Made by a program: the position numbers and the translations under genes | Assembly: GCA_041687475.1 (NCBI GenBank) | Contig: JAWLBW010000002.1 | Coordinates: 1-51,077, forward strand | Source: a bacterium | GTDB taxonomy: Bacteria > J088 > JAWLBW01 | DNA: 51,077 nucleotides | Direction of reading: 5' to 3' | Shown: in pieces, positions 6,376 to 50,147 of the stretch | Numbering within the stretch: position 1 is the stretch's first letter | Layout of the letters: each line of letters opens with the position of its first letter | The notes under the pieces: model-generated | The model's database searches: none | What the model saw: the letters and a program-made list of their open reading frames with translations, nothing else | Told to the model about the DNA's origin: nothing

Positions 6376-6481
6376 GGCTTGTCGACATCACCGCACTTCT
6401 TTGCGAGCCCTCGCCCCCCATGCTCCGTTTCCGGCGCGGCTCTGTTATCATGGATGTTCAGACAGGGAGGAACCGTACGGC

Positions 6482-16987: not shown

Positions 16988-17222
16988 GCCCGACTTGCCG
17001 GGGCTTCCCCTTGCTTGCCGCAGGAAGCGCCGCCGCCTTTCCCGCCCGGAACACCCAGTCGCGCAGCACCGGCTTTACCCCATAGCGATGAATTCCCGAC
17101 TGATGCGGTGGCGAATGCCTTTGGTTTAAGCTATAAGGTATCTTTCATGGGCGCGTTCGGCTGCCTCTGACGGCAGTCGGTGGTCGTCACAGCGTTACCG
17201 ATACGGATTCTGGGGGAGTTAC

Positions 17223-17681: not shown

Positions 17682-17815
17682 CCCGAGAAGCTCCGGCTCG
17701 CCGCCTCCGGCCTTTCCGTGGAAAGCGGGCGATAACGGTGTTTTTTTTTCGCGTGCGGGGGTGCAAACCGGCCCGGTCTGGCATTAGACTGGAACGAGAT
17801 CAGCCGGAGTCCCAC

Positions 17816-19372: not shown

Positions 19373-19379
19373 GGAAACG

Positions 19380-35600: not shown

Positions 35601-37664
35601 GCCGGGGTCGGAGGGCGACGTCAGGTCGAGATAGGTGCTCGCCGAGCCGAAGGTCGATGTGTTACCGGCCGTATCGCGCACGCGTACCCTGACGGTTTTC
35701 GTGCCGTCCGTCGGCGGAAGCGTCACTTCGGGCGTGCCGTCGAACGGCATCCACGCGCCGAGTATGCCTTCGACCTCAATCTGCATCTGCGCTTCGCCCG
35801 AGACGACTACCATTGTCTGCAGCGGCTCGGCGACCCATGCGGGGCTGCCGTTGAAGGCTACCACCGGCTGATTCGGCGCAACGGAGTCGTAAACGACCGA
35901 TGTCGATGCGCCGGCCGAGACGTTTCCGGCCTCGTCGCGCAGACGCAGATAGATGGTGTGCTCGCCCTGTTCGGTCGGCAACATGAACATGGGGGTTGCC
36001 CAGAACTGTTGCCACGGCTCGCCCTGGAAATCGGGGCTCGTCGACAGCTGCATCTGCACGGCGCCGCTGCTCTCGATAGCCAGCGTTACCGTTTGCGTCG
36101 ACACGGCCGCCGGAGCGCCGGAAACCACAAAGGTAAAGATGGCCGGCGGCGTCTGGTCGAACGTTACGTCGACCGAAGCAGTCGCCACATTGCCGGCCTG
36201 ATCGCGAAAGCGCCCGTGAATGGTCTTGAGCCCGTCGCCTCCCTGTAAGGTAAACGCAGGCGTCGCCGTGTACGGCTCCCACGCAACGCCGCCAAACAGG
36301 GCGTCGGCCGAAAGCTGCATTTCGGTTGCCCCGCCCACGTCAATCTGCAGGTTGACGGTCGGCGCCGAAACGGCTGCCGGAGCCCCCGCAACCGCAAAGC
36401 CGAAGACCTCGGGCGCCTGGCGGTCAAGCAATACGGTGGTCGAGGTCTCGGCAATATTGCCGGCGGCATCGCGAAAACGTGCGTAAATACCGTATTGACC
36501 GTCGGAACCCGGCAGTTCGAAGAGCGGGCCCGGCTCGTAAGCCTGCCATGCCGCCCCCTGGAAACCCGGGTCGCCGGCAAGCTGCATGTCGACGGCGCCG
36601 GATACTTCCAACGCGAGCTGCACGGTCGGGATCGAAACGGCAAACGGCGCTCCGGCAACCCCGAAGGAAACAATTTCGGGCACCACCCTGTCGAGCGTGA
36701 CCGAAATCGAGGCAGCAGCGACATTGCCTGCCGCGTCGCGGAACCGAGCGTAAATGGTTTTGACGCCGTCGCCGCCCGGAAGCGTTACTTCGGCGGTCGT
36801 TGCCACCGGCACCCACGTGGCCCCGGCGAAGTCGGGAGCCGCCGACAGCATCATTTCTCCGGCGCCAGTAACACCAATCTCAAGCGTGACCGTGGTCTGA
36901 CTGACCGCGCTCGGCGAGCCGGCCAACCCGAATGTCTGCACGACGGGGGCCACCGTATCGAGGGTAACCGCGAAGGCTACCGGCGCACCGTACGATTGGT
37001 CGTCGTTGAATGCGGCCAGGGAAAGGCTGTTCCCACCTTCCTTCAGGGTCGTACGGAAGGTGAAGGTCTTGTCGCCGTTACGCGACACCACCTGCTGCCC
37101 GTTCAGCGAGACACCGGTGTACATCTGCTTGCGCCCCGAAAGCGCAAGCTCGGCCCGGTTGGTGACAGCGGCGGGAAAGCGATCGACGACAAGCAGCTTC
37201 GGGTTAACGGGGCCGAGAAAGAATTCGCCGGCATCGGTAAGCTCGTCGGCCCGCACCACAACGCCCCGCTTGCGATCGCGCAGTACCAGCTCATTGCCCC
37301 GCAAGGCCTCGATGACCACCTCGTAGGTTCCCGCGGCCATACCCAGAAGCTCTGCCTGCCTGGCAGCCGCGTCGAACGACTCGGTAACCACCGTCTTGCC
37401 GTTCTGGAGCGCCGAGACACGAATCGTCGTCAGGGTCACCGCCGTATCATAGGCCGCCGCGCGCCAGCCATCGCCGCTCGCGGCACGAGAGATACCGTCG
37501 GCCAGCGCGTAATCGGCGGCCAGCGCGTAATCGGCGGCCAGCGCGTAATCGTCGGGAAGATGCGCCTCGAACACAACCGTACCCGGCCCTTCCGGCGTAC
37601 AGCCCCCAAGCGCGGCGGCAGTAACGAGGGCGTTAACGAAAAAACGAAGGCGTTTCGCAATCAT
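23670..37664 (-). CDS. giant (about 4,664 aa) multi-domain surface lipoprotein / adhesin-like protein
   Basis: A single uninterrupted 14-kb ORF (the track gives 4696 aa from 37760). ATG 37664 gives MIAKRLRFFVNALVTAAALGGC, a signal peptide plus lipobox L-G-G-C. The translation contains at least 13 Ig-like repeats (GDGxKTVYxRxRDxAGN), 8 FN3, 6 NHL, 7 FG-GAP, 9 IPT/TIG and 14 Kelch repeats. A terminator follows. Confidence 0.9.
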   Translation of the reverse strand: MIAKRLRFFVNALVTAAALGGCTPEGPGTVVFEAHLPDDYALAADYALAADYALADGISRAASGDGWRAAAYDTAVTLTTIRVSALQNGKTVVTESFDAAARQAELLGMAAGTYEVVIEALRGNELVLRDRKRGVVVRADELTDAGEFFLGPVNPKLLVVDRFPAAVTNRAELALSGRKQMYTGVSLNGQQVVSRNGDKTFTFRTTLKEGGNSLSLAAFNDDQSYGAPVAFAVTLDTVAPVVQTFGLAGSPSAVSQTTVTLEIGVTGAGEMMLSAAPDFAGATWVPVATTAEVTLPGGDGVKTIYARFRDAAGNVAAASISVTLDRVVPEIVSFGVAGAPFAVSIPTVQLALEVSGAVDMQLAGDPGFQGAAWQAYEPGPLFELPGSDGQYGIYARFRDAAGNIAETSTTVLLDRQAPEVFGFAVAGAPAAVSAPTVNLQIDVGGATEMQLSADALFGGVAWEPYTATPAFTLQGGDGLKTIHGRFRDQAGNVATASVDVTFDQTPPAIFTFVVSGAPAAVSTQTVTLAIESSGAVQMQLSTSPDFQGEPWQQFWATPMFMLPTEQGEHTIYLRLRDEAGNVSAGASTSVVYDSVAPNQPVVAFNGSPAWVAEPLQTMVVVSGEAQMQIEVEGILGAWMPFDGTPEVTLPPTDGTKTVRVRVRDTAGNTSTFGSASTYLDLTSPSDPGVPVFSANPVSESVDVSWGAATDGGSGLNNYELRWTTDGANWYFINYVAGESYTWTSAGEGTYQVRVAARDKVGNASGWMVSEALVVDQTAPVVNGAPVVAANPVSSAVGLSWPAATDENGIDAYRLERSVNEGVTWTQLGVTTATTVVDMPGSGYFRYRYVALDAAGNSTASGYSEKVTVDTGLPPIPAAPVPSASVSATGVTLAWTAVVDGMTGTKDYQVQRSSDWVNWTLLATTTDLGFTDIPGADGEYVYRIRARDNALNVSDWSAGSSAVRIDATAPPTPSAPVFSGNPATAAVTVTWSAVTDATNVSYVLEDSADGGSTFTMIAFQPATSFVYAPETDGRYVLRVAAKDEAGNYGPWSTLSDELVFDTTPPEVAGIPVFSANPVSATVTISWAPASDDTSGIQNYVLDVSTDMGATWSQVISTASTSYEYAPVEGTLQYRVHAVDGAGISGPSSPDATLVVDRTAPSSVVTTPMPNDILAGLPLVEGTWAETGAAGLDSVEVALSDGLLYWDGAGFTSPSPVWLPAATSVNFSWTPPALTDGAYQVESRAIDSAGNREVPAAPTAFTIDTLAPACSTCLVIDSPVYPYSATTAVTLLLDANDEHEIEMRIDGDIVDAFKGTWIPFAATPQVNLTGSDGVKTVSVEFRDPAGNTSLSHADSITLDRTSPVLGNVFLANNDAYVNTEVVTLDITATGDATTMVIGGDVDGGLYTTAFTLSTSVTLTAGDGPKVVSVELHDNAGNSSGTLSDNVELDTAAPVDESVEIAGNPVAVSDPTLPLYTYASDAWEMQFADVADFSIATSWETFSSTAMFTLSGDKGGSFAAQVSSPQSVAYDPAGYLYIADTGNHVIRRIDSAANIETIAGDGTPGYSGDGGLATGARLNAPHGLMLDGQGNLYIADSGNHAIRRIDAGGYVSTVAGGNGAGENGDAGLAVDAQLNFPTQVTVDSGGELYIADRDNHRIRKVDGSGQISTAVGTGLPGFAGDGDVPRNAQLSSPSGVWVDPDDNLYIADTGNHRVRKVESAGNISTMAGTGSVGYSAAETIPTSASLDSPTSVVWNEGEVLISDTGNHVLRVIRPDGYLETLLGDGTPGYAGDGGPEQNARLHSLAGLALGEEGGFLADAGNHAIRRVKSGKIDSVAGNGTPGYTGDGVPFVDGDGLRTVYARYRDLAGNLSAAATTTVTLDTTPPSRPYDIRYAESPVSGPVQLSWEPSVDDGVGVSTYRVEASVDAATWFVIGTSAVTSYTASLGEGGYLFRVSASDLLGNRSDTAQLYQGVLVDQTPPSAPGTPLAAANAVSTAVELAWSPATDAAAGIAHYNLGASNDGGTTWYHVDSMTEPVYSYLPADGEYLFVVSAIDRAGNTGAFSSISLPVTIDTAAPPAPEMPVFSANPVSTAVTISWSSVIDSGSGVAEYVLQASSDDGATFATIAVVTQPDYTYLPSDGAYVYRLAAVDAAGNRSSWSPSTGALLVDTVAPGAPVVSIAGEPTYVNTPNVSLSVSAIGATEMQISESADFGGAGWQSYTASPAVTLSAGDGLKTVYVRVRDVVGLISPANAASVTLDVTPPSTTITQPLDGSRQTAVMSVDGMADDGAGSGIVFVESNLSDGVNFFDGASFTSPAPIWFTATGTSSWSWALSALSDGAYFVEARAVDQAGNTGASTFPVQFTIDTLAPQCAVCIAIDVPQYPYTASQDVTLLFEASGETGPVEMLVDGDIVDAYRGTWMPYASMLSATVTAGDGTKTVSVQYRDAAGNTTILQSDTVTLDTSAPLLGAVELAGGASTVNSSLVSLDLTVSGDVATMDVTGDVATPLLDVPFQGTSSINLSPANGEKTVWVTVYDAVGHASSPVSDTVYLSTSGPALTVKAPFRTFVTGATLAWRVDGANTGDDMARGLAALDDLNDDGIADFAVGIPGDDAAGVDAGKVEIRSGADGSVLHTLTGATAGDKFGSSLATVADIDSDGYRDLLIGAPDTDFAASNAGSVYVISGGTRIELTRLDGTAANENYGKTVAAAEDLDQDGKDEFLVGANGSSFGGRVFVVRGSDYGTMFQVSGDNTADELGRSLAGTPDLNGDGTPDFVAGAPYADYGVTDAGSVYAFSGTDASLLYRLDGQVETGYYGMSLTPGMEMLLVGSPAGTEKGALFISNGLDGAVEHVVYSECGPGCGFGAAVAWAGDLEGDGVEAFVVTEEATWYGGSAAGSVHLYSTEEGRYLYRFDGAAGDYLGRTVAVPGDLNGDSVGDLLVGAYSVNGSVLALASTGETRDFARSSLLRFNLTGAPGAVSAEASVNGGAWNELTGDWSVVEIDVGGEGMHTVSFRGVDGFGNPGTAHTETVGVDLTPPTLMITDPVSNVTTTQATELLISGSMQDPITSGVGGVVRGYYWMATYTDLSGEQRGWAEDDGFYNHVDGAREYFVATSQSSFTQAIPNEGEGLYQIDIAALDGAFNASGGVHTEIVVDRTAPTGGITGPTVVSVSQAMLSLQAEDQWWHEWWQLEMMLTGDITDWYAGSWQPFTDSTYVNFTTGNGNKAVTVQFRDPAGNTSPAYTWSVLVDAFALASLSASSATGGTEITLYGSNFGFPVSDSAVFFDGLMANISLWDETAITATVPEEVPAGQVQVWVETGGDVSNSLPLSVQPSLLSLGASTLSGGDLLFVSGSNFAFPVEASIGGVTQPVETWSATTAEIRVADHTPPGTQPVQLWAYGYPTNTLSIDIAPRIDYIGTIAARAGDAVEIYGANLGGSAGDEVYVGGLPAYIVSWSPTNITFEIPAGVAAGNTMIEVFAGGVYSNSTSFDILPTLTSISSSSVVAGDTLTLWGESFGETSVGNSVLINWVNATVLSWTGTTIDISVPANVGAGPQAIEVMVSSMYSEAQWVDVYPVIDSLSFTSGSGGNTVTAYGSNFGTTPSSLLVGGAGATVGGWDQVTFDFQVPNDAEPGVQPLSVNVNGFPSAPVSFTVIPYLNAISPGYGTGGDTMTLSGTNFGSTQGQVLVDDIAATVLSWNAYEIQAEIPQAVTAGSRQMRVVAGGETSAGQWISVSPTITALNPVSGPVGAVVDIIGHNFGNFAVGNTIEFGGVVTEPVSWAPSLIQVRVPPELGPGTWSVQVGIDANYSNGEPFDVFVPMPQITTITPAAARSYATVTIDGSGFGPPAPQNDVYFGGVTANVYTWTDTQIVAEVPVNANAGNLKLRVSKGPDVSNAVPFVHERPWIEMRYPANGAPGTTMTISGRYFGTTTGAVHFDGMPATVNGWTDDTVQVTVPAGTTGRQSVVVLDASSVGSNRVPWVQTGNDVWVPLGDAPLAVSEQTAVWTGTEMIVWGGRHIGPRDTGARYNPATDSWMAVARAGAPEARYAHTAVWAGDRMVVWGGKNGFGAHLDSGGMYDPISDSWQATQPAGVPVARVGHSALYTGREMIVFGGYDGTSFRNDGARFNPRTNQWGPMALAASPRAEHTAVWTGQGMLVHGGRDGAGETNSIEQYNPAGNAWTSFSGATETRRLHTAVWTGSSMIVFGGRSGAADLATGEIFYPQGGTWGTMPTGSPARSGHTAVWAGEQMLVFGGRSSGSPIDAGTAYYPAVESWVNMNNVGSPGPRYAHTTVWTGGDMLVFGGAEVEGEALNTGGRYNPQSDTWTPIDNGGTPVGRTAHTAVFTGSEMIVWGGKNVRTGQHRNTGARYNPATESWTPVQTTGAPTARARHTAVWAPEAGRMIVWGGVDAVGGALNSGGRYDPSLDSWAPTSTLTGVPAARTNHTAVWTGAEMIVWGGTDMTNRLGSGGRYNASGDTWTQVATGGPTPREGHTAVWSGQEMLIWGGVDGTTHYSNGASFNPGLGQWTAIPSTSLSPRTGHTAVWSGSEMIVFGGVSGPTTYFNDGARYMPGTGWTLLGLTGAPVGRARHTAVFSGNELIVWGGVDPGGYAPGGGRYLPGTNTWIGVSGADEPQTRVGHTAVWAPGKGMLLFGGEAGQAQNAGVLNDGGRYLP
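23673..25740 (-). other. giant protein: 14 Kelch-type repeats (enough for two 7-bladed propellers), C-terminal
   Basis: 14 occurrences of the roughly 50-aa unit H-T-A-V-W-(T/S/A)-G-x-x-M-(I/L)-V-(W/F)-G-G ... R-Y-(N/D)-P-x-x-(D/N)-x-W. The protein ends ...NDGGRYLP with no recognisable sorting tag. Confidence 0.8.
25741..27929 (-). other. giant protein: 9 tandem IPT/TIG domains
   Basis: Nine roughly 80-aa units each contain GG(T/D)x(I/L)T(L/I)xG(S/T)NFG and ...V/I..W....I...VP......G...V.V. Boundaries are approximate. Confidence 0.7.
28815..29960 (-). other. giant protein: FG-GAP (integrin-alpha-like) 7-bladed propeller
   Basis: Six DxDxDG-type loops (DLNDDGIADFAVG, DIDSDGYRDLLIG, DLDQDGKDEFLVG, DLNGDGTPDFVAG, DLEGDGVEAFVV, DLNGDSVGDLLVG) plus one degenerate blade, with intervening (F/Y)G motifs. 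Boundaries are approximate. Confidence 0.75.
31165..32035 (-). other. giant protein: FN3 block 2 (3 domains)
   Basis: Units like PVFSANPVSTAVTISWSSVIDSGSGVAEYVLQASSDDGATFATIA...YVYRLAAVDAAGNRSSWS show the FN3-like W...Y...Y.V.A.D..GN pattern. Boundaries are approximate. Confidence 0.65.
32130..33125 (-). other. giant protein: 6 NHL repeats (6-bladed propeller) inserted in an Ig-like repeat
   Basis: Six units have (L/V)YIAD(T/S)GNH(x)(I/V)R(R/K)(I/V) cores: GNHVIRRID, GNHAIRRID, DNHRIRKVD, GNHRVRKVE, GNHVLRVIR, GNHAIRRVK. Each is followed by G(D/N)GTPGY(S/A/T)GDG. Confidence 0.8.
34185..35620 (-). other. giant protein: FN3 block 1 (5 domains)
   Basis: Five roughly 97-aa units, for example PVFSANPVSESVDVSWGAATDGGSGLNNYELRWTTDGANW...YQVRVAARDKVGNASGW. 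Boundaries are approximate. Confidence 0.65.
35625..36968 (-). other. giant protein: 5 tandem Ig-like roughly 90-aa repeats
   Basis: Five consecutive units follow the pattern (T/L)LD..(A/P)P......(A/S)G.P.AVS..TV.L.I...GA..MQLS....F.G..W.....T..F.L.GGDG.KTIY.RFRD.AGN. Confidence 0.75.
37501..37554 (-). repeat. 18-bp in-frame tandem repeat x3 (encodes DYALAA-DYALAA-DYALAD) near the 5' end of the giant gene
   Basis: The plus strand reads gccagcgcgtaatcggcg twice perfectly (37501-37536), then gccagcgcgtaatcgtcg with one mismatch (37537-37554). It lies about 17 codons after the lipobox Cys. Confidence 0.9.
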
Positions 37665-38011
37665 GGCTTCCCTGTAACGAGCGGTGACCGGCAGACCAGT
37701 CGCCGGGTGAACCTTTGGGTGGAACGTCCGAATATTAACACAGCGCGGCAACACCAACAAACGATCCAGATCACACTCCGGAAAATTCTTTCAGACGAAA
37801 TATGGACAAGGGAGCGGGAACAGGCTGAAACGCTTCCCGGCTTCCGGGTAAAAACCTTCGAATACCTCCGGAATCCCCCATGCGTGCGCGGGATCACAGC
37901 AGGCCCGGGCCAAACGGGTTACAACGTGAACAGCGGTCTGTCGGAGAAAGGCTGGCCGGTTAAGCGTCCTTCTGCTAGGCTGGGGCATTCATCTTCCGTC
38001 ACGACTTACCG

Positions 38012-39397
38012 ATGAATTCGCGTACAAGACACCTGACTTCGCTGTTGTTCGGCACCCTGCTTCTGCTTACGCCGCCGTCTGCCTCGGCGCAGGACGACTT
38101 TTCGGGAAACCTGGAAATCGGCACCACCCTTTTCCGCCTCGGCAAAGACGAAAAAGCCGTCATTTACCTAGAGCGAGCCGCCGAGGCGCGTCCCGATGAT
38201 TCTTCGGCGCTGATTCCGCTGGGTATCTCGCTGTCTCGACTCGGTCGCCATGAAGAGGCGGTAACGGTGCTCGAGCGCGCCGAGCTCAAAGGCACCCTCG
38301 GCGCCGATGGGGCCTGGTATCTGGGCGAGTCGTGGAAAGCGCTGGGGAATCGAGAAGCCGCCCGCCATGCCTACCAGCTGGCCGCCGAACTGGGGGGCCC
38401 ACTGAGCACGCGTGCCCTGCTTGAAAGCGGGCGCATGGCCCTGACGCTCGGCGACCTGCAGGGCGCCGAACGCGATTTCGAACGGGTGCTGCAACTGCAG
38501 GCAGCCGGCGATCTGGCCGCCGAAGCCCGCGCGGGGCTGTCCGAGGTGTCACGTCGACGGAGCACCCGCCTGGCCGTAAACGTCGATGCGGGCATTCGCT
38601 ACGACAGCAACGTACTTCTTTCGGGCGCCCCGACGAGCGACGACCGCGGCTTTCGCGCCGTCGTGAACGGTCAGGGACGATACCGCTTCATCGAAACACA
38701 ATCGCTGCGCTCGGAAGGGGCCGTGGTTGTAAATCAGGGCCGCTATTTCGACCCCGACCACCGGGCCCTCGATTTGGGCGTTCACCAAGCGCAGGCCGAT
38801 CTGACCTGGCGGCCGGGCAAGCTACCCCTTCGCCTCGGCGGCCTGGTGCGTGCCGAATACTGGACGCTCGACTTCCATTTCTACAAACGCGCCATCGGCG
38901 TGGGGCCGCGCCTGCTTGTCGCCATGGGCGAGAACTTCGCCACCGCGGCTTCGTGGGAATGGCGGCTCGACGATTTCCGCAGCGACGAGCGCGACGGTAT
39001 CAACCGGCGTGCCCAGCTCAACCAATTCGCCTTCTGGGGAAAAACCGGCTACGCCGGCATCGGGGCCAGTTACGAAACCAACCGTGCCGCCGACGACTTC
39101 TGGATTTACGATCTGCTGAGCGCCCGCATTTTCGGCGGCGGCGACGTGGGGGCGGGCATTCTCGTCGACGGCAGTTTCGAGTACCTGCTTACGCCCTATC
39201 TGGCCGAGTCGGTCGACCGCACCGACCGGGCCCTCAGCGCCGCGCTGGGCGTGAGTCGCTGGTGGGGCGACTGGGGTGTGCGCCTCTCGACCGCGTGGAT
39301 TCGGAACGAAAACGTGCGCGCCCCCGAAATCGGCGTTCTGGCCGGAAACTACACCAAGTGGCTGGGCGGTCTCGAAGCCCGTTGGCGCATGCCCTGA
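38012..39397 (+). CDS. outer-membrane protein: N-terminal TPR domain + C-terminal beta-barrel (Slam/DUF560-like architecture)
   Basis: The signal peptide is MNSRTRHLTSLLFGTLLLLTPPSASA-QDD. About 170 aa are TPR-like helices (GKDEKAVIYLERAAEARPDD, GRHEEAVTVLERA, GNREAARHAYQLAAELG, GDLQGAERDFERVLQLQ). About 290 aa then carry roughly 14 alternating-hydrophobic strand-like segments, starting RLAVNVDAGIRYDSNV and ending GGLEARWRMP. Confidence 0.7.
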   Translation: MNSRTRHLTSLLFGTLLLLTPPSASAQDDFSGNLEIGTTLFRLGKDEKAVIYLERAAEARPDDSSALIPLGISLSRLGRHEEAVTVLERAELKGTLGADGAWYLGESWKALGNREAARHAYQLAAELGGPLSTRALLESGRMALTLGDLQGAERDFERVLQLQAAGDLAAEARAGLSEVSRRRSTRLAVNVDAGIRYDSNVLLSGAPTSDDRGFRAVVNGQGRYRFIETQSLRSEGAVVVNQGRYFDPDHRALDLGVHQAQADLTWRPGKLPLRLGGLVRAEYWTLDFHFYKRAIGVGPRLLVAMGENFATAASWEWRLDDFRSDERDGINRRAQLNQFAFWGKTGYAGIGASYETNRAADDFWIYDLLSARIFGGGDVGAGILVDGSFEYLLTPYLAESVDRTDRALSAALGVSRWWGDWGVRLSTAWIRNENVRAPEIGVLAGNYTKWLGGLEARWRMP

Positions 39398-39473: not shown

Positions 39474-40481
39474 ATGAAACGTTTGTTGGCGCTGGGCGCC
39501 CTGATGCTTTCCCTGGTATGCACCGAAGCCTGGGCGGCCACCGCTCACGTGGGAACGGTGGTTTCGTCGACCGGTACGGTCGTTCTGCAGCGTACCGGCA
39601 AGCGCTACAAGCTTCCCGAAGGCACCAAGGTCTACAACGGCGATTCGGTGGTAACCGGTAAGGGCGCCTTTGCCAAGATTCTGCTTGCCGACGACAGCCT
39701 GCTCACCATCAACGAGTCCAGCGCCTTTCGCCTGGAGGGGTTCGAGACCAGCGATCAGCAGCGCAGCGGACGTTTTCGCCTTTACTTCGGCAAGATGCGG
39801 GCGGTGGTTTCCAAGTTTCTCTCGGGCAACACCGATTACAAATTTCAGACCCCCACGGCCGTGGCCGGCGTGCGCGGCACCCATTTCGTGCTCGAGTTCG
39901 ACAAGAATGCGCAGCAAACGACCTTGTCGGTCGTCGAGGGACAGGTTGCGTTCAATGCCGTCGACGAGCGCATCGGCACCCCGGTTCTGGTCGGCGCGTC
40001 GCAGCGCTCGGAACAACGCAGTCGAAGCGCCCCCAGCGAAGCCCGTGAAATGACCGACCAGGAGCGTCAGTCGGTAAACGAAGAAATTGCTTCGACCCAG
40101 ACGCCGCCCGAAGGCACCGGCGAGTCGCAGGGCGAAGGCGGTGAACGTCAGGAAGAGTCGGCGTCTACCGGAAGTGACGGCGACGCAGGTGGTGGCGATG
40201 CAGGCGAGGGCGACAGCGAGAACGACGGCGAAGATACCGGCGACGAGGCATCGGGTGAAGGCGGCAATGATGAGGGCGCGAACGAAGACGGAGCCTCGCA
40301 TAACGATGCAGGAGATGAGTCTGCCCAGGAGACCCCCGAACAGCCGGCCGACGGCGGCGTCATCGAACGCACCGAAACCGTTCAACAGGAAGTGCCCCGC
40401 GAGGTCGAGCGCAACCTGCCCACCGACAGTCCGGTCGCAGACCCCAGCGTAAACCCCACAGGCATTCGCGTGCGCTGGTAA
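39474..40481 (+). CDS. FecR-domain periplasmic protein with long acidic low-complexity tail
   Basis: The signal peptide is MKRLLALGALMLSLVCTEAWA-A. The FecR-like beta-sandwich pattern is VVLQRTGKRYKLPEGTKVYNGDSVVTGKGAFAKILLADDSLLTINESSAFRLE...TPTAVAGVRGTHFVLE. An approximately 90-aa Gly/Asp/Glu-rich region follows. RBS gagggag. Confidence 0.75.
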   Translation: MKRLLALGALMLSLVCTEAWAATAHVGTVVSSTGTVVLQRTGKRYKLPEGTKVYNGDSVVTGKGAFAKILLADDSLLTINESSAFRLEGFETSDQQRSGRFRLYFGKMRAVVSKFLSGNTDYKFQTPTAVAGVRGTHFVLEFDKNAQQTTLSVVEGQVAFNAVDERIGTPVLVGASQRSEQRSRSAPSEAREMTDQERQSVNEEIASTQTPPEGTGESQGEGGERQEESASTGSDGDAGGGDAGEGDSENDGEDTGDEASGEGGNDEGANEDGASHNDAGDESAQETPEQPADGGVIERTETVQQEVPREVERNLPTDSPVADPSVNPTGIRVRW

Positions 40482-40509: not shown

Positions 40510-40541
40510 GGCCGGGAGGGCAATGCTCTCCCGGCCTTTTT
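40510..40541 (+). terminator. intrinsic terminator after the FecR-domain gene
   Basis: ggccgggag-(9 nt)-ctcccggcc is a perfect 9-bp GC-rich stem followed by ttttt, 29 nt after the stop. Confidence 0.75.
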
Positions 40542-40652
40542 CATGCCTTGCTTCCCGGATTCGGACTGCCTTCTGGCGACCGAGGGGTAGACAACTGTTG
40601 TGTGACATTGATAGACTACCGCAGCGCTCGCTGGAAACAAGGGGGAACAACC

Positions 40653-41888
40653 ATGCGCCAACTCACCGGCGGCCTCGCCGCTCTGCTCGTATTCGCCGCC
40701 GCCTGCAGCCCGGTCGAAGTCGAAAACACCGGGCCGCTCGACTATACCGTGCAGCTCGAGAAACCGGCCTTCGGCTACCAGATAGCGACGGCCCCGCACG
40801 TCGTGCATCCGGGCGAAGAGTACTATTCGTGCGACATCGTGCGCATCGATCCGCAGAACGGCGAGAACCTGGCGTGGATCGGCGGTCTCGAGAGTCGCAC
40901 TTCGGTCTCGAGCCATCACATGAACGTCAACCTGGGCATCTTCTCCGTGGCCGACGCCCTGCTCGGCGAGGGTCAGGCCGAGCTCATGCTCGGCAAGGAA
41001 CTCGGGCAGTACGACTGTGCAGAGCTGGGCGACCTCATGGAGAAGCAACAGGCACAGACCCTGTACCCGAGCCAGCGCACCGAACAGGGCGGCACCCTGC
41101 CCGAAGGGGTCGGCCTGCCCCTGCCGCTGCCCCTCGTGCTGGTCATGGAGCACCACTACATCAACACCTTCGATGCGCCGGTCAACATCAACGCCGTGCT
41201 GAACCTGCATCGCATGCAGGACCACGAGGTCAAGCACGTGGTCACCGGTTTCTCGGGCGGAATCAACGATGTGCTGCTTCCGCCCGAGTCACGTAAGATC
41301 GAGACGGGCACCTGCAAGCTGAAACAGGACATCAACGTTTTCGCGATTTCCAGCCACTCGCACGAACGCGGGGCCTGCTTCACGATGAATCTATATGACG
41401 AACTCAGCCGTGAAGTCGATCCCACGCCCTTCTTCGTAAACAAAGACTGGGAGTCGCCCCCCATTCTCTTTTTCGAGCAGAGCGAGTACTTCGCGAACCA
41501 GCCTCTGGCCATGAAGGCGGGCGAAGGCATACACTGGGCCTGCCATTACTACAACGACGAAAATCGCGAAGTAACCACCGGCGCATCGTCCGATGACGAA
41601 ATGTGCATCTTCGTCGCCCTCGGCTACCCGTCGAAGTATACGCCCGATGACGTGCGCGATCTCATGCAGAATCCGAACCTCGAGGCGGCACAGGCGCTGA
41701 TGAACCAGATTCCCTGTGAAAGCGTCGCCGACGCCGAAAGCCCGTGGGAAGAAGCCGATATCGCCTACGCCATAGACGACGACGCCCCGCTGCTTGACGA
41801 CACCGCCCCGGAAGCCGCGCCGTCATTCCGTTCCCTGCATGCGAGTCTCGAGCACGACATGTGCCGGGAGTACGACCAGACCGAGTAG
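40653..41888 (+). CDS. PHM/DBH-like copper type II monooxygenase-fold protein, secreted/lipoprotein (paralog 1)
   Basis: The signal peptide is MRQLTGGLAALLVFAAAC. Ordered motifs are SSHHMNV (HHM), MEHHYIN (HY), SSHSHERG (HxH) and SSDDEMCIF (EMC). These match the order of CuH (H,H...H) and CuM (HxH...M) ligands of peptidylglycine alpha-hydroxylating monooxygenase and dopamine beta-monooxygenase. The internal ATG of track ORF 40503..41888 was chosen. Confidence 0.7.
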   Translation: MRQLTGGLAALLVFAAACSPVEVENTGPLDYTVQLEKPAFGYQIATAPHVVHPGEEYYSCDIVRIDPQNGENLAWIGGLESRTSVSSHHMNVNLGIFSVADALLGEGQAELMLGKELGQYDCAELGDLMEKQQAQTLYPSQRTEQGGTLPEGVGLPLPLPLVLVMEHHYINTFDAPVNINAVLNLHRMQDHEVKHVVTGFSGGINDVLLPPESRKIETGTCKLKQDINVFAISSHSHERGACFTMNLYDELSREVDPTPFFVNKDWESPPILFFEQSEYFANQPLAMKAGEGIHWACHYYNDENREVTTGASSDDEMCIFVALGYPSKYTPDDVRDLMQNPNLEAAQALMNQIPCESVADAESPWEEADIAYAIDDDAPLLDDTAPEAAPSFRSLHASLEHDMCREYDQTE

Positions 41889-42024
41889 GGGGAATCTCAA
41901 GCCGTGCCAGCGCGCAGGGCACGAGAATATTGTCGCTTCCACGTATTTCTGCGTGGAAGCCCCCTTGACATCCGTCCCTTGAAATTCGCCGGTCGGGTCG
42001 GCCAAAAATACCCCGTTTCAGGTA

Positions 42025-42053
42025 TTGCCCCGTCCCACCCCCCGGGGTAGGAT
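42025..42053 (+). promoter_or_regulatory. sigma70-like promoter candidate TTGCCC-17 nt-TAGGAT
   Basis: The hexamers are at 42025-42030 and 42048-42053 with a 17-nt spacer. The element lies about 30 nt upstream of the terminator hairpin, so it would make a short (roughly 65-nt) transcript. Confidence 0.25.
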
Positions 42054-42080
42054 GCCACTCACAAAGGGTTGGGCTGGGCT

Positions 42081-42125
42081 GGTGCCGGACGTGGCTCACG
42101 GGGTTGAGTCCGGCACCGCTTTTTT
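42081..42125 (+). terminator. strong intrinsic terminator in the 540-bp intergenic gap
   Basis: ggtgccggac (42081-42090) pairs perfectly with gtccggcacc (42108-42117), giving a 10-bp stem, followed by gc+tttttt (42120-42125). Confidence 0.7.
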
Positions 42126-42431
42126 CAAGTGAACCTGCCGCCCCCGCCTTCTGCACCTGGCCTGCACGTCTACGAGGGCGAGCCGTTCCGCGCGCGCGTC
42201 ACCCTCCCCCAAGCAGGGTCAATGGCTCTCGGTCCTGTACGGGTATTCGTCAGGGGCGCCCCTTCCCCCAGTCAGGAGCTTTCCGGACGCTGAAAGTGCA
42301 GAGCGCCGGCGCTGTCACTGTCGCCTGAAAGCCGAGTATGCTTCCCCCAGCCAAGTCACGCCCATTCGGAGGCAGGCGATTACGCAGTGGTTTGCCGCAG
42401 TCGCCGCGAGGTCGCTTCCCGCGGCTTCCCC

Positions 42432-43697
42432 CTAAAGAGATACGAGAAAGTATACGAGGCACATTTCATCGGCAGTGCCTTCGCCCCAGGTCGTCGCCCG
42501 GGTCCGGTCCGAGGTGTCGAAGCCGCAGGTCAGCCGAATACTCGACGACGGGCTGACACGCAAGGGTTCCTCGTAGAAGTAGAACTGCTGCCAGTTGAAG
42601 TCCCAGCGGGGAACGTTGACCAGGCAGGTTTCGTCGCCGAATTCGAGATTGTCGACGCGCAATGTCTTGCCCAGCGTGTGCATGTGGGGAAAAGCGGCCC
42701 AGACCCGCAGGGGAAACGGCAGCCCCAGGGTCGATAGGTCGTAGGTATAGCTCTGTTCGACATACGACTCGCCGGGGGGCAGGTAAATGCCGAGGTGAGC
42801 CACCGGGGCCAGCACCGACTGGTATCGCACCGACGCGTCGACCTGCAGTTCGAGCCGGGAACGATCGGGGGTCACGCCGCTCAAGGTGTTGTAGTGCATC
42901 TGCATGACCAGCTTGCGGCCGGCTTTCAGGGCAATGCCCACGCCCTCGGGAAATCGGGTTACCGGCGTTCCGGGGGCCCAGCCGGCCAGGGTTTGCGAGC
43001 CGTCGACGCCCGCGCCCCCGAAGCAGGTGTAACCGGGGCCGGGTTCTGCCTCGTCAAACGCCAGCGCCTGGGCTTCGGCCTCGTCGGTGTCGAGGGAGTA
43101 GAGAATCATGTGATGGGCCATGGCCGCATTGTCGGGAATCATGCGAAAACCGGTCAGGAACCCGTCGGAGTCGAGTCGGGGGTCGACGATGAAACAGCGG
43201 TAATCGTCGGCCCGGCTGTCATCGGGGGTATAGGCCTCGGCCGGGGCGACGGTCGCGTCGACCCTGTCGAGCGTGGGCGGTTCATCGCTGTCGGCGGGCG
43301 CCGGTGCGTCGGCCGGATTACCCCTGGGCGCCCCGGCATCGGCCCATGCGCCGATGAGCGCGATGTCGTCGTCGCTGAGCCAGCGGGCGTGTTGCCAGGT
43401 GTTGCAGGCACCCGAGTTGTCGACGCCCCATGGGGGCATGCTGCGATCGGCGGTGCGGGCCTTGATGGCGCCGGCGTAGGCCTTTGCCTCGTCATAACCG
43501 GTCAACGTAAAGGGGGCAATGCCGCCTTCGGTGTGACAACCGCTGCACTGTGCGCTGATGATGGGGCCGACGTCGCGGTGCCAGGTCGGCGAAGCCGCGT
43601 TCTTCTTCTTGTCGTCGCCGCACCCCGCCGCCGTCAGCAAGACAGCTAACAGCAGGGGAACGAACACAGGCGCTCCGTCATTCAGCTCACGTAACAT
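42432..43697 (-). CDS. heme-c (CxxCH) domain fused to PHM/DBH-like copper monooxygenase fold, lipoprotein (paralog 2)
   Basis: Signal and lipobox: LLLAVLLTAAGC-GDDKKK. Heme c site: CSGCH with downstream ...DRSMPPW. Then AHHMILY (HHM), MQMHYN (HY), FPHMHTLGK (HxH) and TADEMCLVYF (EMC). RBS aggaggg. Confidence 0.7.
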   Translation of the reverse strand: MLRELNDGAPVFVPLLLAVLLTAAGCGDDKKKNAASPTWHRDVGPIISAQCSGCHTEGGIAPFTLTGYDEAKAYAGAIKARTADRSMPPWGVDNSGACNTWQHARWLSDDDIALIGAWADAGAPRGNPADAPAPADSDEPPTLDRVDATVAPAEAYTPDDSRADDYRCFIVDPRLDSDGFLTGFRMIPDNAAMAHHMILYSLDTDEAEAQALAFDEAEPGPGYTCFGGAGVDGSQTLAGWAPGTPVTRFPEGVGIALKAGRKLVMQMHYNTLSGVTPDRSRLELQVDASVRYQSVLAPVAHLGIYLPPGESYVEQSYTYDLSTLGLPFPLRVWAAFPHMHTLGKTLRVDNLEFGDETCLVNVPRWDFNWQQFYFYEEPLRVSPSSSIRLTCGFDTSDRTRATTWGEGTADEMCLVYFLVSL

Positions 43698-43770: not shown

Positions 43771-44208
43771 TCAGGACAAACCGGCCTGCAATCCGGCAGG
43801 CAAGGCAATACCCGCCACTTTGAGCAAGTCTGCGGCGACGTCAAGCCCCTCCGTCAGCGTCGGCACGATGCGATATTCGTTGGGTAGCGGCTGAATCCAG
43901 AGAATGCCGGTCAGAATCGCACGCACGACCGCCGAGTTGATGATGAAGATCGAGGCCACGTTCAGTCGGCGCAGGTCGTCGGCATTGGTCTTGAGCCATT
44001 CGCCCATGCGCTTGCGGTGGGGGGCCGGTAAACTGCCCGCATGGGTGGCGTCGAACACCATCAGAAACCGCCGCCCCGTCGAGCGACTTGCGGTAAGTAC
44101 CCGGTCGAGGCTGGCGATATAGGCGTCGAATTCCTCGGCCGAGGCTTCGCCTTGAAAGGAAAAGAGGTAGACTGGGGCGAAATCTTCCTTGAACACGATG
44201 GCAGACAC
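43771..44208 (-). CDS. hypothetical cytoplasmic protein, co-directional with and upstream of the heme-PHM-like gene
   Basis: 145-aa ORF with coding-like composition. No motif recognised with confidence. Confidence 0.5.
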   Translation of the reverse strand: MSAIVFKEDFAPVYLFSFQGEASAEEFDAYIASLDRVLTASRSTGRRFLMVFDATHAGSLPAPHRKRMGEWLKTNADDLRRLNVASIFIINSAVVRAILTGILWIQPLPNEYRIVPTLTEGLDVAADLLKVAGIALPAGLQAGLS

Positions 44209-44339
44209 GGGTACACTCCTGACCGGTAAGACACCCGACCATTTCGGGCCGGGCCTTTGATTCTAACCGCCGATGACGGCCGGGGGCAACCGGGCCGCCC
44301 CGGCGTGCGCGTGATATGCTGTTGCCAGAGGAGTTCTCC

Positions 44340-45026
44340 ATGCCCGACAAGCCCTACACCTTCGACGATCTCACCGCCCTCGCCGCCTTCGAAGACGAAC
44401 TGGAAAACGTTCACGCAGCGGTGGCCGAATCACTCACCCGTGAACAGATATGGGAGGCCGGACGTAACCTCGGCTTGCTGAGCTCGGAGTCCGACGAAGT
44501 TACCGAGGAGCAGCTCGACATCCTTCTTTCCTTCACCATGTACGGGCAGCGTTTCGACGGCGTAACCCCGCTCGCCCGATGGCTCGAAGCGCCCTCCATT
44601 CCCCTTGGCGAAGAACTGCAGGCAGCCTTGCGTCAGGCTCGGTTCACCCTGCTCGTACCCGTCGGCTTTGAAGAACCCTACGGCATCGAAGCCCGCGATC
44701 TCATTACCGACGAGCGTGTGTTCGTCTTCGAACCTTTTCTGGGCGAACTGGAAGAGGAAGCCCGCGACTTCGTGCTCGCCACCTGGCTGCTGCCGCACCC
44801 TCGCTTCCTGACGACGAATACGTCGCTGATGCTGATACCCGGCGATCTCGTCGACGAGGTGGTCGAACCCCTGCAGGAAAAGATGCCTGCCGTGCGTCGG
44901 GGGGGGCTGGGGGCCCTTGCCAAGGCCGATGCAGCCGCGCTGGTCGAGGCCGAGGCCGCCGTCATAGGCGCCATTCTACGGAAAGACCTGCTGCTCGGTT
45001 TCGAGTACGAAGAAGAAGAAGACTGA
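44340..45026 (+). CDS. hypothetical acidic protein
   Basis: RBS gaggag lies 6 nt before ATG 44340 (MPDKPYTFDDL...). The C-terminus ends EYEEEED. No family recognised. Confidence 0.5.
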   Translation: MPDKPYTFDDLTALAAFEDELENVHAAVAESLTREQIWEAGRNLGLLSSESDEVTEEQLDILLSFTMYGQRFDGVTPLARWLEAPSIPLGEELQAALRQARFTLLVPVGFEEPYGIEARDLITDERVFVFEPFLGELEEEARDFVLATWLLPHPRFLTTNTSLMLIPGDLVDEVVEPLQEKMPAVRRGGLGALAKADAAALVEAEAAVIGAILRKDLLLGFEYEEEED

Positions 45027-45056: not shown

Positions 45057-45884
45057 TCAGGACTGGCTTCTGATCGTCGGACCGTACTTCGACCAGAACT
45101 CGCTCACGACCACGCCCAGCGAGCCCAGCACCACGCCCATCAGAAGGGCGAGCGCCGCGACCAGTGTCAAAAGCGGACGAACTGGGCCCGGCGAGCTCAC
45201 GGCCGCCGTTTCGACGTGGGTCGGGTTCGCTTGCATACGGGCAAGGTACAAGCGGTTCTCGAAAAGCTGCTCAAGCGCCAACTGGCGGGTCTGCTGTTCG
45301 GTCGAACGTTCGATGCCCCGGGCCGCCGAAACCACCGGATCGCGGTTGGTCGAAGCCCCCGGCGACGAGTTGCGCAGGGCGTCGGCCAGAACTTCAAGTT
45401 CGGCAAGATAAGTCGCGGTTGCTTCCTGCACGACGGAGGCTTCGGCCTGATGCTGCGCGACCAATTCGTCGGCAACCTGTTGGGCAAGCGCAACGGCGTC
45501 GGCTTTGTTGTACGCCTCGGCTTCGATGCGAATGAAGCGGTCGGTTCCGCCTTCGGAAATATCGGCTACCCAGGCAACCTCGCGGCGCTGCAGATTCGGC
45601 TCGTCGACGCGATAATTGATACGCAGGCGGGCAACCACGTCCTTGGGCGGTTCGACGTGCTCGAGTCGGCCGTTTCCGATCACGTACCCCACCTTCACGA
45701 CCGCAAAGCTGCGATAAATTCGCTCGGCCAGGAAAAAGTAAGCCCCGGCAGCCAGCAATACGATGACGAAAAGCACGGAAAAAACGAACCGGCGACGCCA
45801 GAAAATGGCGACCAGCTCGGCCATGTCCATGCCTCTGGATGCGTCGACCACTGCGGTTGTTGGTTGCTGTGCTGTGAGAGGCAT
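45057..45884 (-). CDS. Wzz-type polysaccharide co-polymerase (chain-length determinant)
   Basis: The topology is PCP-1: N-terminal TM (FVFSVLFVIVLLAAGAYFFL) just after AELVAIFWRRR, a long helical periplasmic region, and a C-terminal Pro/Gly-containing TM (PGPVRPLLTLVAALALLMGVVLGSLGVVV). The start is uncertain (45956, 45884 or 45830). Confidence 0.65.
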   Translation of the reverse strand: MPLTAQQPTTAVVDASRGMDMAELVAIFWRRRFVFSVLFVIVLLAAGAYFFLAERIYRSFAVVKVGYVIGNGRLEHVEPPKDVVARLRINYRVDEPNLQRREVAWVADISEGGTDRFIRIEAEAYNKADAVALAQQVADELVAQHQAEASVVQEATATYLAELEVLADALRNSSPGASTNRDPVVSAARGIERSTEQQTRQLALEQLFENRLYLARMQANPTHVETAAVSSPGPVRPLLTLVAALALLMGVVLGSLGVVVSEFWSKYGPTIRSQS

Positions 45885-45997
45885 GCCCTGTTCCCGTTCC
45901 CCGGCCTGTGAAGTGTTACCGATAAATGACCCAACGTTTCTTGGGCAATCAAGCATTATAGCACGGACCGCCGAACACCCAAACTGCCGATACTCGC

Positions 45998-47071
45998 CTA
46001 CGTAGGAGCCCCTGACTCGACCGGTGCGACGGGCACGACCGGCACTCCGTTCTCTTCGAGATACCGGTAAGCCAGTGTAATACGCTCCCGGTCGATGTCA
46101 GACAACAGACCGGGGGGTATTTCAAAGGCCGTAACCCCGATGCCGGGAAAAATGCGGGGAAGCGTTACGAGCGCGGTTGAACAGAAACCCGCGATGGCGG
46201 CGGGCGTCTCGCGTCGCAGTAGAAATTCGATTTCGATGGCGTTTTCGAGAACGAGTGTCTCCATTCCGGTTGCGTAAGAAAGCCGGTCGAGCGCTTCAGG
46301 CGTTTCGGCTCGATGCGCCAGGTAAATGAAGCGCTTTCCCTGATAATACGCCTGCGCGAAGCGAAGCGCATCGAACAGAGCCTGCGGCGTGGTGAAGCCG
46401 CGATCGAGATAGGGTTGGCCCACGAAGTAGACACTCTCGTCGGCACGGCGACCGCTCTCGCGCAAAAGCGCGCGCGTAAAGGTAAAATCGTTCGGCACCA
46501 CGCGCTGCCCGGGGTGCGGCGTCAGCGAGAAGCAGGTAAACAAGGTCGGCACCGGGTCGGCGAAGAAACCTAGCCTGCGCGCGAGGCTGGTACGAAGGTA
46601 TGCCGCCATTACGGCCGGATTGGCGCCCACCGGAGGCTCGGGCCGAAGAAAAAGCGGGTGCCGATGAATGTTTACCGACGCCATGCCGTCGTCAAGCAGG
46701 ATCAGCTCGTCGTACGACATGCCGGCGGCAAGGAAACGCCGGGTAATGCTGTTGTAGTCCGAGAGAAAGACCCGCGCGTACCGTCGCGCGCCCATTTTCC
46801 GGCGGAAAGCGGCCAGGCGCAGGGCCTGCAGCGGCAGACTCGCATTTCGATGAAGGAAGGGAACGGTAACGATCTCGTCCCACGGAGCGGCGAGGGCGAG
46901 CACGCGCTCGATCTGCTCGTAGTTGCGTGTACCCGTCGGCGCGTGCAGCGCGAGCACATGCCGTTCGGCCGGAAACCGCTCGCGTGCTTCAAGAGCGCTG
47001 AGCAACTGCAGGGGCGATCCGGCAAGATAGAGGTTGGTTGTGAAGGCGTCTTCTACGCCGGTTGCGGCCAT
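45998..47071 (-). CDS. hypothetical glycosyltransferase-like protein; candidate nonulosonic-acid (pseudaminic acid) transferase
   Basis: About 357-380 aa. It contains LILLDDGMAS (D-D-G) and LTPHPG (H-P), reminiscent of the two short motifs shared by bacterial sialyltransferase families. It is divergent from the pse operon and adjacent to wzz. The start is uncertain (TTG 47140 or ATG 47071). Confidence 0.4.
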   Translation of the reverse strand: MAATGVEDAFTTNLYLAGSPLQLLSALEARERFPAERHVLALHAPTGTRNYEQIERVLALAAPWDEIVTVPFLHRNASLPLQALRLAAFRRKMGARRYARVFLSDYNSITRRFLAAGMSYDELILLDDGMASVNIHRHPLFLRPEPPVGANPAVMAAYLRTSLARRLGFFADPVPTLFTCFSLTPHPGQRVVPNDFTFTRALLRESGRRADESVYFVGQPYLDRGFTTPQALFDALRFAQAYYQGKRFIYLAHRAETPEALDRLSYATGMETLVLENAIEIEFLLRRETPAAIAGFCSTALVTLPRIFPGIGVTAFEIPPGLLSDIDRERITLAYRYLEENGVPVVPVAPVESGAPT

Positions 47072-47197
47072 ACTCCATCTTACCGGCTTCGCTGTTCTCG
47101 CCTCAAGCACGCCCTCGTAATCTCTCCTTTGTACACGCAAGCGCCGAGGTGCTAAACTGTTGGCTTAACATTTCCGGAGCTCCCTGCGCCGGCGTGA

Positions 47198-49406
<2,209 letters not shown>

Positions 49407-49410
<4 letters not shown>

Positions 49411-50147
49411 AGGTCGTCGCCGTCATTCAGGCACGCATGGGGTCGACCCGGTTGCCCGGCAAGGTGCTGCTGCCGCTTGGCGGAAGCACCGTGCTCTCGC
49501 AGGTCATTCGCCGCGTGGCCGGCTGCGACCGTATCGACCGGGTCGTGGTCGCCACCACCGATTCGCCCACGGACGATCCGGTTGCCGAAGAGGCGTCGCG
49601 CCACGGGGCCGGTGTTTTCCGCGGCAGCGAACAGGACGTGCTCTCTCGATACTACGGCGCCGCTTTGCAGGAAGGGGCCGATGTCGTGATTCGGGTAACC
49701 TCCGATTGTCCCCTTCTCGATACGCGGTTGCTCTGCGACGTGGTCGCCGATTTTCTTCGTCGTCATGCTGCGGAAAAATGCGACTACCTGAGCAACACGC
49801 AGACCCGAACCTATCCGCGCGGACTCGATATCGAAGTTTTCACCTTCGAAGCACTCAGGCAGGCACACGAGCAGGCGCGCCACGCGCACGAACGCGAACA
49901 CGTCACGCCGTATATCTACAATCCGGACAACCGGTTTTCGCTGGCCTCGTACGAGGGCGAAACCGACCTGTCGGCCCATCGGTGGACCCTGGATACGCCC
50001 GAGGATCTGGCCCTTCTCACAGCGGTGGTCGAACAATTCGCACCCCGCGACCCCACGACCGACGAAGTGGTCGCGTTTCTCGCACAGCACCCGGAAATTC
50101 GGGACCTGAATGCGCATGTCGAGCAGAAAAAGCTGACTGAAAAGTAG
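49407..50147 (+). CDS. pseF: cytidylyltransferase of the SpsF/COG1861 type, probable CMP-pseudaminic acid synthetase role
   Basis: GTG 49407 overlaps the pseC stop (GTGA). VAVIQARMGSTRLPGKVLLPLGG is the SpsF-type nucleotidyltransferase P-loop-like motif. It sits between pseC and pseG. It is not the NeuA-like PseF type, so the functional assignment is by context. Confidence 0.6.

Follow-up and report, generated by a model that had tools for sequence, protein, structure and literature searches.

Peptidylglycine α-hydroxylating monooxygenase (PHM, the catalytic core of PAM) and dopamine β-hydroxylase (DBH), the animal two-copper enzymes of peptide hormone amidation and noradrenaline synthesis, and tyramine β-monooxygenase (TBM) are textbook enzymes whose mechanism is debated (open versus closed conformers and the role of ascorbate), and they have been studied almost entirely with animal proteins that are hard to make. 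In PHM, the CuH site is formed by H107, H108 and H172 and the CuM site by H242, H244 and M314, O2 binds to the reduced CuM, and CuH provides the second electron of the reaction (PMC12164859). A 2020 metalloproteome review lists PHM and DBM among the eukaryote-only cuproproteins. Here, we analyzed a 51,077-nucleotide stretch of bacterial chromosomal DNA with a G+C content of about 62% (contig JAWLBW010000002.1; the whole stretch is called the window below). Two convergent genes of the window, referred to as A and B, encode lipoproteins that are predicted to belong to the PHM/DBH class, and B additionally carries a putative N-terminal cytochrome c domain. The original prediction, made from the sequence alone, had proposed two convergent genes for PHM/DBH-like copper monooxygenases, one of them with a haem c site. 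Both open reading frames (ORFs) were confirmed, and their codon-position G+C was of the coding type, with third-position values (GC3) of 0.78 for A and 0.80 for B.

All ligand motifs quoted in the original prediction were found in the two proteins. In A, SSHHMNV begins at residue 86, HHYIN at 167, SHSHERG at 234 and DDEMCIF at 314; in B, CSGCH begins at residue 51, AHHMILY at 194, MHYN at 267, PHMHTLGK at 337 and ADEMCLVYF at 409. Hidden Markov model searches, profile-profile alignment, fold comparison and conservation agreed on the assignment, well past what chance would give. The Pfam model Cu2_monoox_C (PF03712; cut-off, 23 bits) matched both A (E = 3.6e-9, 36.7 bits) and B (E = 4.6e-13, 49.4 bits), and the N-domain model Cu2_monooxygen (PF01082) matched B just over its cut-off of 30 (E = 3.7e-7, 30.8 bits). 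Residues 157 to 418 of B aligned to the rat PHM core sequences in the PDB with E = 4e-16 and about 23% identity. All six ligands were aligned, with AHHM, QMHY, PHMH and DEMC of B falling on HHM, QVHY, HTH and DEMC of PHM; human DBH in the PDB was matched by sequence at E = 5.7e-9. For A, the N-domain was supported by an hhalign comparison with the B family, in which the two family profiles aligned over 253 columns with 97% probability (E = 5.9e-11) and the four motifs in register, and by a fold match of the whole core. AlphaFold2 models were built from the family alignments and reached a predicted local distance difference test (pLDDT) value of 89.9 and a predicted template modeling (pTM) score of 0.84 for B, compared to 87.4 and 0.80 for A. 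Foldseek returned strong matches to PHM and DBH only, in the range of 1e-11 to 1e-18. The B model matched PHM/DBH structures at 9.5e-19 to 1e-13, with template modeling (TM) scores of 0.63 to 0.72 (normalized to the target) and DBH at 1.6e-16. The A model matched them at 1.7e-12 to 5e-8 with TM scores of about 0.65 to 0.67, with DBH at the top (1.7e-12) and PHM at 1.6e-11. The next matches were unrelated jelly-roll proteins at 3e-6 or weaker, and the PDB fold matches of the two models included no bacterial member among the solved structures. We regard it as practically certain that A and B have the PHM/DBH fold with a complete assignment of the six copper ligands. As a side observation, the B model fitted the "closed" H108A-citrate conformer of PHM (6ala) best (TM 0.71 to 0.72, root mean square deviation of 3.6 to 4.1 Å), with TM scores of about 0.63 for the open forms, which hints at a more closed predicted interdomain angle.

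In an alignment of 46 B-family sequences sharing 42 to 54% identity with the window protein, H195, H196, H268, H338, H340 and M412 were all invariant. The same was true for Q266, which aligns to Q170 of PHM, and for six cysteines outside the haem motif. By alignment, C168-C225 and C391-C413 match the PHM disulfides C81-C126 and C293-C315. The remaining invariant pair consists of C98, with which the cytochrome domain ends, and C358 of the CuM domain; since these are the only cysteines left over after the PHM-type pairs, they may form an interdomain disulfide. The 22-member A family showed invariant H88, H89, H235, H237, E316, M317 and C318 and a nearly invariant H168. A search with the A-family profile against 1.84 billion cluster representatives yielded 2,332 proteins at E ≤ 1e-3, including 1,080 at E ≤ 1e-10. 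Above 500 bits, there were just four full-length clusters, and A is therefore a member of a rare subfamily within a big superfamily of haem-less lipoproteins. The next tier of matches consisted of a large set of proteins of 300 to 450 residues; HH, HxH and [ED]M[CS] were found at matching spacing in 119 of 122, a signal peptide ending in Cys in almost all and CxxCH in none. We aligned 111 superfamily representatives, each standing for one cluster at 50% identity, with MAFFT and found H88, H235 and H237 in all 111, H89 and H168 in 110 each, and M317 in 108. Because the six ligand columns are kept across clusters that share less than 50% identity, this alignment argues for functional copper sites across the A-like superfamily. 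Among the superfamily relatives, two haem-less PHM-like proteins (P0216 and P0282) displayed an N-terminal collagen triple-helix repeat region, and three (P0231, P0250 and P0253) had long linkers rich in Pro, Thr and Asp.

The B family is large, with more than 1,000 proteins, mainly from Myxococcota. Its named members belong to this phylum (Polyangiaceae, Kofleriaceae, Nannocystis, Chondromyces crocatus and Byssovorax), and their annotation labels include "monooxygenase" and "cytochrome c domain-containing protein." A-type genes were found only in metagenome-assembled genomes labeled Myxococcota, Deltaproteobacteria, Dadabacteria or Proteobacteria and in marine metagenome contigs. NCBIfam offered no informative family for A or B.

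The haem site at the N terminus of B had been proposed as a built-in electron donor. The haem domain was supported by the motif itself and by its family-wide occurrence, as CxxCH followed by MPP within 60 residues was present in 120 of the 120 B-family proteins listed and both motifs were invariant in the family alignments; the domain model for the window protein itself, however, stayed below its cut-off (see below). When the domains of 22 B-family members were excised, Cytochrome_CBB3 matched all 22 (best E = 1e-7), PccH 17 and Cytochrom_C 15. The best PDB match of the B haem-domain profile was the monohaem cytochrome PccH (4rlr; E = 0.005), covering the haem-motif region only. M87, which is invariant within R-x-M-P-P in the B family, is a candidate for the distal axial haem ligand. 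These features suggest that the N-terminal domain of B is a monohaem, His/Met-ligated c-type cytochrome and a putative electron entry to CuH. In P0174, a protein from another subfamily, the N-terminal domain was PSCyt1-like and contained the motifs CX4CH and RQMPP. Because this separate fusion exists besides that of the B family, cytochrome-like modules appear to have been joined to the PHM-type copper core at least twice.

Both proteins start with a signal peptide that ends in a lipobox cysteine, C18 in A and C26 in B, as had been proposed. These cysteines were read directly from the sequence. The lipobox cysteine was invariant in the 22-member A family and kept in 109 of the 111 superfamily representatives.

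We consider it probable that A and B are exported, lipid-anchored two-copper monooxygenases and that B is fed with electrons via its fused haem. Both proteins would be exported by the Sec pathway, lipidated at the lipobox cysteine and exposed to the periplasm. Loaded with copper and, in the case of B, with haem, they would act as members of the non-coupled binuclear copper monooxygenase class (PHM/DBH/TBM fold), in which CuH (His3) would serve for electron storage and transfer and CuM (His2Met) for O2 activation. With O2 bound to the reduced CuM, the substrate would be hydroxylated at a C-H bond and CuH would give the second electron, as in PHM; two electrons would be used per turnover in A and in B. 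Carriers of the periplasmic respiratory chain would reduce the fused cytochrome c of B, which would pass single electrons to CuH and thereby replace ascorbate. The fusion to a cytochrome c argues for a donor other than ascorbate in B; A, which has no haem domain, would need a separate donor. For the substrate, we infer a small molecule or an envelope component and not a product of the giant, TPR or FecR genes located next to A. A small molecule or an envelope lipid is favored by the single-gene organization, the TetR genes beside A-type genes and the missing peptide-binding residues. The TetR genes, found in two arrangements at 16 loci, hint at a small molecule. More tentatively, and with slightly less than even confidence, we propose that B-type proteins are self-sufficient haem-copper monooxygenases of a prokaryotic PHM/DBH branch, which would use respiratory electrons via cytochrome c to hydroxylate a small molecule of the periplasm or a component of the envelope. 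B-type proteins and the large haem-less A superfamily together would constitute the first functional non-coupled binuclear copper monooxygenases from bacteria.

Several observations weigh against this mechanism. The Pfam N-domain model PF01082 did not match A at E ≤ 1, and comparisons of A with PDB sequences, using either the single sequence or the 22-sequence family profile, gave no match. The copper-site geometry of A and B is deduced from residue-level alignment, and the A-family member P0123 carries QQ instead of HH at the third CuH ligand. The Cytochrome_CBB3 score of B was below the cut-off of 27 bits, both for the whole protein (17.8 bits) and for the excised domain (21.8 bits). At the loci examined, the genomic context of A and B pointed to no substrate. 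Our literature search retrieved no relevant paper on bacterial PHM/DBH-like enzymes or on cytochrome c fusions, which agrees with the earlier statement that bacterial members are essentially uncharacterized.

The features of the window are compiled in Table 1. The mechanical ORF of gene A opens at TTG 40503; the true start is the ATG at 40653, because AAGGGGGA precedes it, the signal peptide falls at the N terminus and the N termini of the homologs all match. A hairpin followed by T5 and then a promoter match separate gene A from the FecR-domain gene, which makes it probable that A is transcribed on its own. The hairpin between A and B may terminate this transcript, and the two genes appear to be independently transcribed. 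The convergent intergenic region (positions 41889 to 42431) is unusually long with 543 bp and contains a second perfect hairpin at 41935 to 41960. No convincing coding ORF was found in this region, and Rfam and tRNA scans of the whole window, the intergenic region included, resulted in no match. The 145-aa ORF upstream of B could be cotranscribed with it; beside the B-type genes of other loci, no homolog was seen.

Table 1. Coordinates of genes, domains, ligands and signals in the window (in nucleotides, numbered from the first letter of the window; residue numbers refer to the encoded protein)
Feature	Coordinates	Strand	Description
Gene A	40653-41888	+	411-aa lipoprotein; PHM/DBH-type two-copper core at residues ~30-326; no haem motif
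Gene A signal peptide	40653-40706	+	Ends in lipobox Cys18 (LVFAAAC); read from the sequence
Gene A CuH ligands	40914-40919; 41154-41156	+	H88-H89; H168 (by alignment)
Gene A CuM ligands	41355-41363; 41601-41603	+	H235-x-H237; Met317 within DDEMC (by alignment)
Gene A C-terminal extension	residues ~327-411	+	Family specific; conserved C355 and C404
Gene B	42432-43697	-	421-aa lipoprotein; putative N-terminal monohaem cytochrome c domain and PHM-type two-copper core
Gene B signal peptide	43620-43697	-	Ends in lipobox Cys26 (LLTAAGC); read from the sequence
Gene B putative cytochrome c domain	43323-43592	-	Residues ~36-125; C51-S-G-C54-H55 at 43533-43547; R85-S-M87-P-P at 43431-43445
Gene B PHM-type catalytic core	42435-43250	-	Residues ~150-421; CuH H195, H196, H268; CuM H338, H340, M412
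Gene B ribosome-binding site		-	GGAGGG, 5 nt 5′ of ATG
Terminator-like hairpin upstream of gene A	40510-40541	+	12-bp stem with 10 G-C pairs, then TTTTT; just past the stop of the FecR-domain gene
Sigma-70-like promoter match upstream of gene A	40588-40617	+	TAGACA-18-TAGACT, with TG; consensus match only
Shine-Dalgarno-like sequence upstream of gene A	40639-40646	+	AAGGGGGA; consensus match only
Hairpin in A/B intergenic region	42081-42125	+	10-bp perfect stem (42081-42117), 17-nt loop, then TTTTTT
145-aa ORF	43771-44208	-	Coding-type composition, no Pfam match; ends 73 bp upstream of gene B, same strand
ORF	44316-45026	+	Coding-type composition, no Pfam match
MerR-type ORF	16436-16987	+	MerR Pfam matches
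Second MerR-type ORF	17223-17681	+	Matches the same MerR gene of L001
HAD-hydrolase/trehalose-phosphatase fusion	17738-19372	+	
GH65 phosphorylase	19380-21815	+	
Giant protein gene	23670-37760	-	4,696 aa; Kelch/β-propeller, IPT/TIG, Big_13, NHL, FG-GAP, fn3 and Ig-like domains
TPR protein gene	38012-39397	+	Divergent from the giant gene
FecR-domain protein gene	39474-40481	+	Signal peptide; long acidic C-terminal half of low complexity with many Glu, Asp and Gly residues

The comparison of gene neighborhoods covered 61 fetched loci and 44 independent A-type loci from genome and metagenome scans. The only recurrent neighbor found for A-type genes was a TetR-family regulator, which adjoins the A-type gene in 16 loci (L014 to L017, L021, L022, L031 to L034, L036, L037, L043, L049, L051 and L061). 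It is located either downstream on the same strand or upstream in divergent orientation, and the regulators are 28 to 95% identical. At L002, a separate TetR gene lies 240 bp from the A-type gene. The window contains no TetR homolog. Two further observations concern the window outside the region of A and B. Positions 45057 to 50147 hold a capsule or nonulosonic-acid-type cluster with genes for a Wzz/GNVR chain-length protein, a polysialyltransferase-like protein, a PseB-like dehydratase (Polysacc_synt_2), a DegT-family aminotransferase and a CMP-sugar cytidylyltransferase. Two genes of the Na+/Ca2+ exchanger family lie close together (3596 to 4612 and 5410 to 6375, plus strand), followed by BacA/UppP at 6401 to 7315. 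Outside the window, L028 (2091 to 8535) and L043 (30 to 4298) each hold an A-type gene without haem within about 2.4 kb of a B-type gene with its cytochrome c fusion. The start of the A-type gene of L028 overlaps the stop of a gene for a 509-aa FGE-sulfatase-domain protein; FGE-type enzymes are copper-dependent oxidases.

The original prediction had linked A and B to a giant lipoprotein/outer membrane protein/FecR cluster and had speculated that they hydroxylate a periplasmic or surface protein or peptide. Besides the physical nearness in the window, this idea could draw on giant repeat-protein or FecR-domain genes located a few kilobases from the homologs in L001, L002 and L009. The giant protein appears to be of a surface or adhesin type; its gene, however, lies on the strand opposite to A and is divergent from the TPR and FecR genes, which corrects the earlier layout, and the terminator-like hairpin and the promoter-like site insulate A from the FecR gene. 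At L029, an A homolog (51% identity) is positioned directly 3′ of a trehalose-phosphatase gene (58%) and a GH65 gene (65%), which are orthologs of the corresponding window genes. In the window, a gap of 18.8 kb between GH65 and A holds the giant, TPR and FecR genes, and this gap is absent from L029. Since L029 places the A homolog directly after the orthologous GH65 gene, the 18.8-kb block looks like a lineage-specific insertion. At L001, the A homolog (59% identity) is preceded by MerR and HAD hydrolase genes, and the gene order of window positions 16436 to 21815 is syntenic with L029 and, in part, with L001. No recurrent TPR, FecR or giant neighbor was present among the 44 independent A-type loci, and no shared neighbors were seen in six distinct A-family loci or in the four B-family loci L007 to L010 (two of which represent the same gene). 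A tblastn search with the TPR and FecR proteins of the window across the 61 loci gave a single FecR match, 7 kb away. A functional tie to the cluster was therefore rejected on the basis of the separate transcription signals, the strand, the lineage-specific block and the missing recurrence in the 61 loci, and a substrate from this cluster is extremely improbable. Cooperation of A and B in one pathway, in which the haem of B would supply electrons to A or both proteins would act successively on the same substrate, is distinctly unlikely as well. A-type and B-type genes lie within 0.5 to 2.4 kb of each other three times, namely, in the window, L028 and L043. Such proximity at 2 of the 44 independent loci outside the window, for which no more than 268 kb of flank was examined, looks higher than expected by chance under our assumption of a few B-type genes per genome. 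The proximity thus probably exceeds chance, although it falls far short of a conserved module. No B-type gene was located within 5 kb at 42 of the 44 A-type loci; of the 30 loci with 4 kb or more of flank, 28 were among these 42. A conserved gene pair is therefore improbable. None of the four B-family loci carried an A-type gene, orientation and spacing were unlike in all three cases, unrelated genes intervene in L028 and L043, and of the two families, that of B is by far the more widespread. The two proteins shared 27% identity over 182 residues in the C-terminal half (E = 2e-9). The description of A and B as paralogs is thus valid in the superfamily sense; recent paralogy was ruled out by this low identity and by their different families, which are of very different size.

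It is rather improbable, but deserves consideration, that the haem and copper centers do other redox work, for example, as a periplasmic oxidase, peroxidase or reductase that uses electrons from cytochrome c to reduce O2, H2O2, superoxide or a nitrogen oxide. The characterized members of the fold are all C-H hydroxylases in which O2 reduction is tightly coupled to the substrate (PMC12164859). The cytochrome c-to-copper wiring of B would nevertheless suit a terminal reductase equally well, and the CuM of PHM binds nitrite, azide, CO and peroxide in crystals (3mib, 3mll, 3mlj and 4e4z). This reading would also fit the missing PHM substrate binders R240 and N316 and the finding of no substrate-related neighbor gene at the loci examined. 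However, CuM with its His2Met ligands and the Q170 equivalent of the B family are kept exactly as in the hydroxylases, and a built-in electron entry is missing from the haem-less A-type superfamily, which would be odd for a respiratory-type reductase. A non-catalytic role, in which A and B would be copper-binding lipoproteins for buffering, delivery or sensing on a retained PHM scaffold, is very unlikely. Copper chaperones and buffers are small Met/His/Cys-rich folds and not 300-residue two-domain catalytic scaffolds. Such a role would be compatible with periplasmic lipoproteins that have two conserved copper sites, and MerR-type regulators were found near A-type genes in the sub-clade of the window; in the window itself, however, other genes separate MerR from A, and TetR takes the place of MerR in the marine clade. 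The strict conservation of the asymmetric His3 and His2Met sites and the fused redox-active haem domain of the B family point instead to catalysis, and we continue to favor exported two-copper monooxygenases.

A and B are an uncharacterized bacterial variant of a well-known enzyme class, and their architecture is already visible in public annotation; this window adds no functional clue beyond what the B family and the A superfamily already show. If our proposal is true, a bacterial B-type enzyme would be independent of ascorbate, and electron delivery to CuH could be triggered and followed spectroscopically. B-type enzymes would also represent a new oxygenase chemistry in the periplasm of Myxococcota, a phylum rich in natural products. 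Bacterial PHM-like enzymes would help to trace how peptide amidation and catecholamine synthesis arose in evolution, and the B-type and A-type proteins could be the bacterial stock of the eukaryotic hormone- and neurotransmitter-processing enzymes.

PHM (PDB 1phm, 1opm, 3mll and 6ala) shares with A and B the arrangement of two β-sandwiches, the same six copper ligands and a secreted or extracytoplasmic location, and with B also Q170 and the two disulfides named above. A is too diverged from PHM for a sequence-level PDB match. Unlike A and B, PHM is eukaryotic and fused to PAL instead of being lipid anchored; unlike B, it has no haem domain and uses ascorbate as the reductant. N316 and Y318 of PHM are substrate binders in the PHM-substrate structure. 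R240 binds the carboxylate of the substrate (PMC12164859). R240 is replaced by F336 in B and S233 in A, and N316 by L414 and I319, respectively. Y318 corresponds to Y416 in the window B protein, for which the B-family consensus is F, and to V321 in A. Because the carboxylate binders of PHM are absent, a C-terminal glycine peptide is an unlikely substrate, and true PHM enzymes were ruled out since R240 and N316 are not conserved. DBH, TBM and MOXD1 (4zel) display the same catalytic core and ligand set as A and B. Their substrates are small molecules and not peptides, and they may therefore offer a better functional analogy than PHM. They differ from A and B by an N-terminal DOMON domain, a dimerization domain and the use of ascorbate. 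B carries its putative cytochrome c domain where DBH-type enzymes have the N-terminal DOMON, and a DBH-type architecture was ruled out by the finding of no DOMON Pfam match at E ≤ 1 in either protein. By alignment, A and B thus appear to belong to the structural and mechanistic class of PHM and DBH without being orthologs of either enzyme. The N-terminal domain of B resembles monohaem c-type cytochromes (Cytochrome_CBB3, Cytochrom_C and Geobacter PccH, 4rlr) in its N-terminal helix, CxxCH, Met-Pro-Pro and C-terminal amphipathic helix. Those cytochromes are free-standing, whereas the domain of B is fused upstream of a copper enzyme, and it matches them weakly in sequence. Cytochrome c-fused copper nitrite reductases and the cytochrome domain of cellobiose dehydrogenase, which feeds LPMOs, have folds and copper sites unrelated to those of B, and we claim no homology; they provide an analogy in which a haem domain delivers single electrons to copper.

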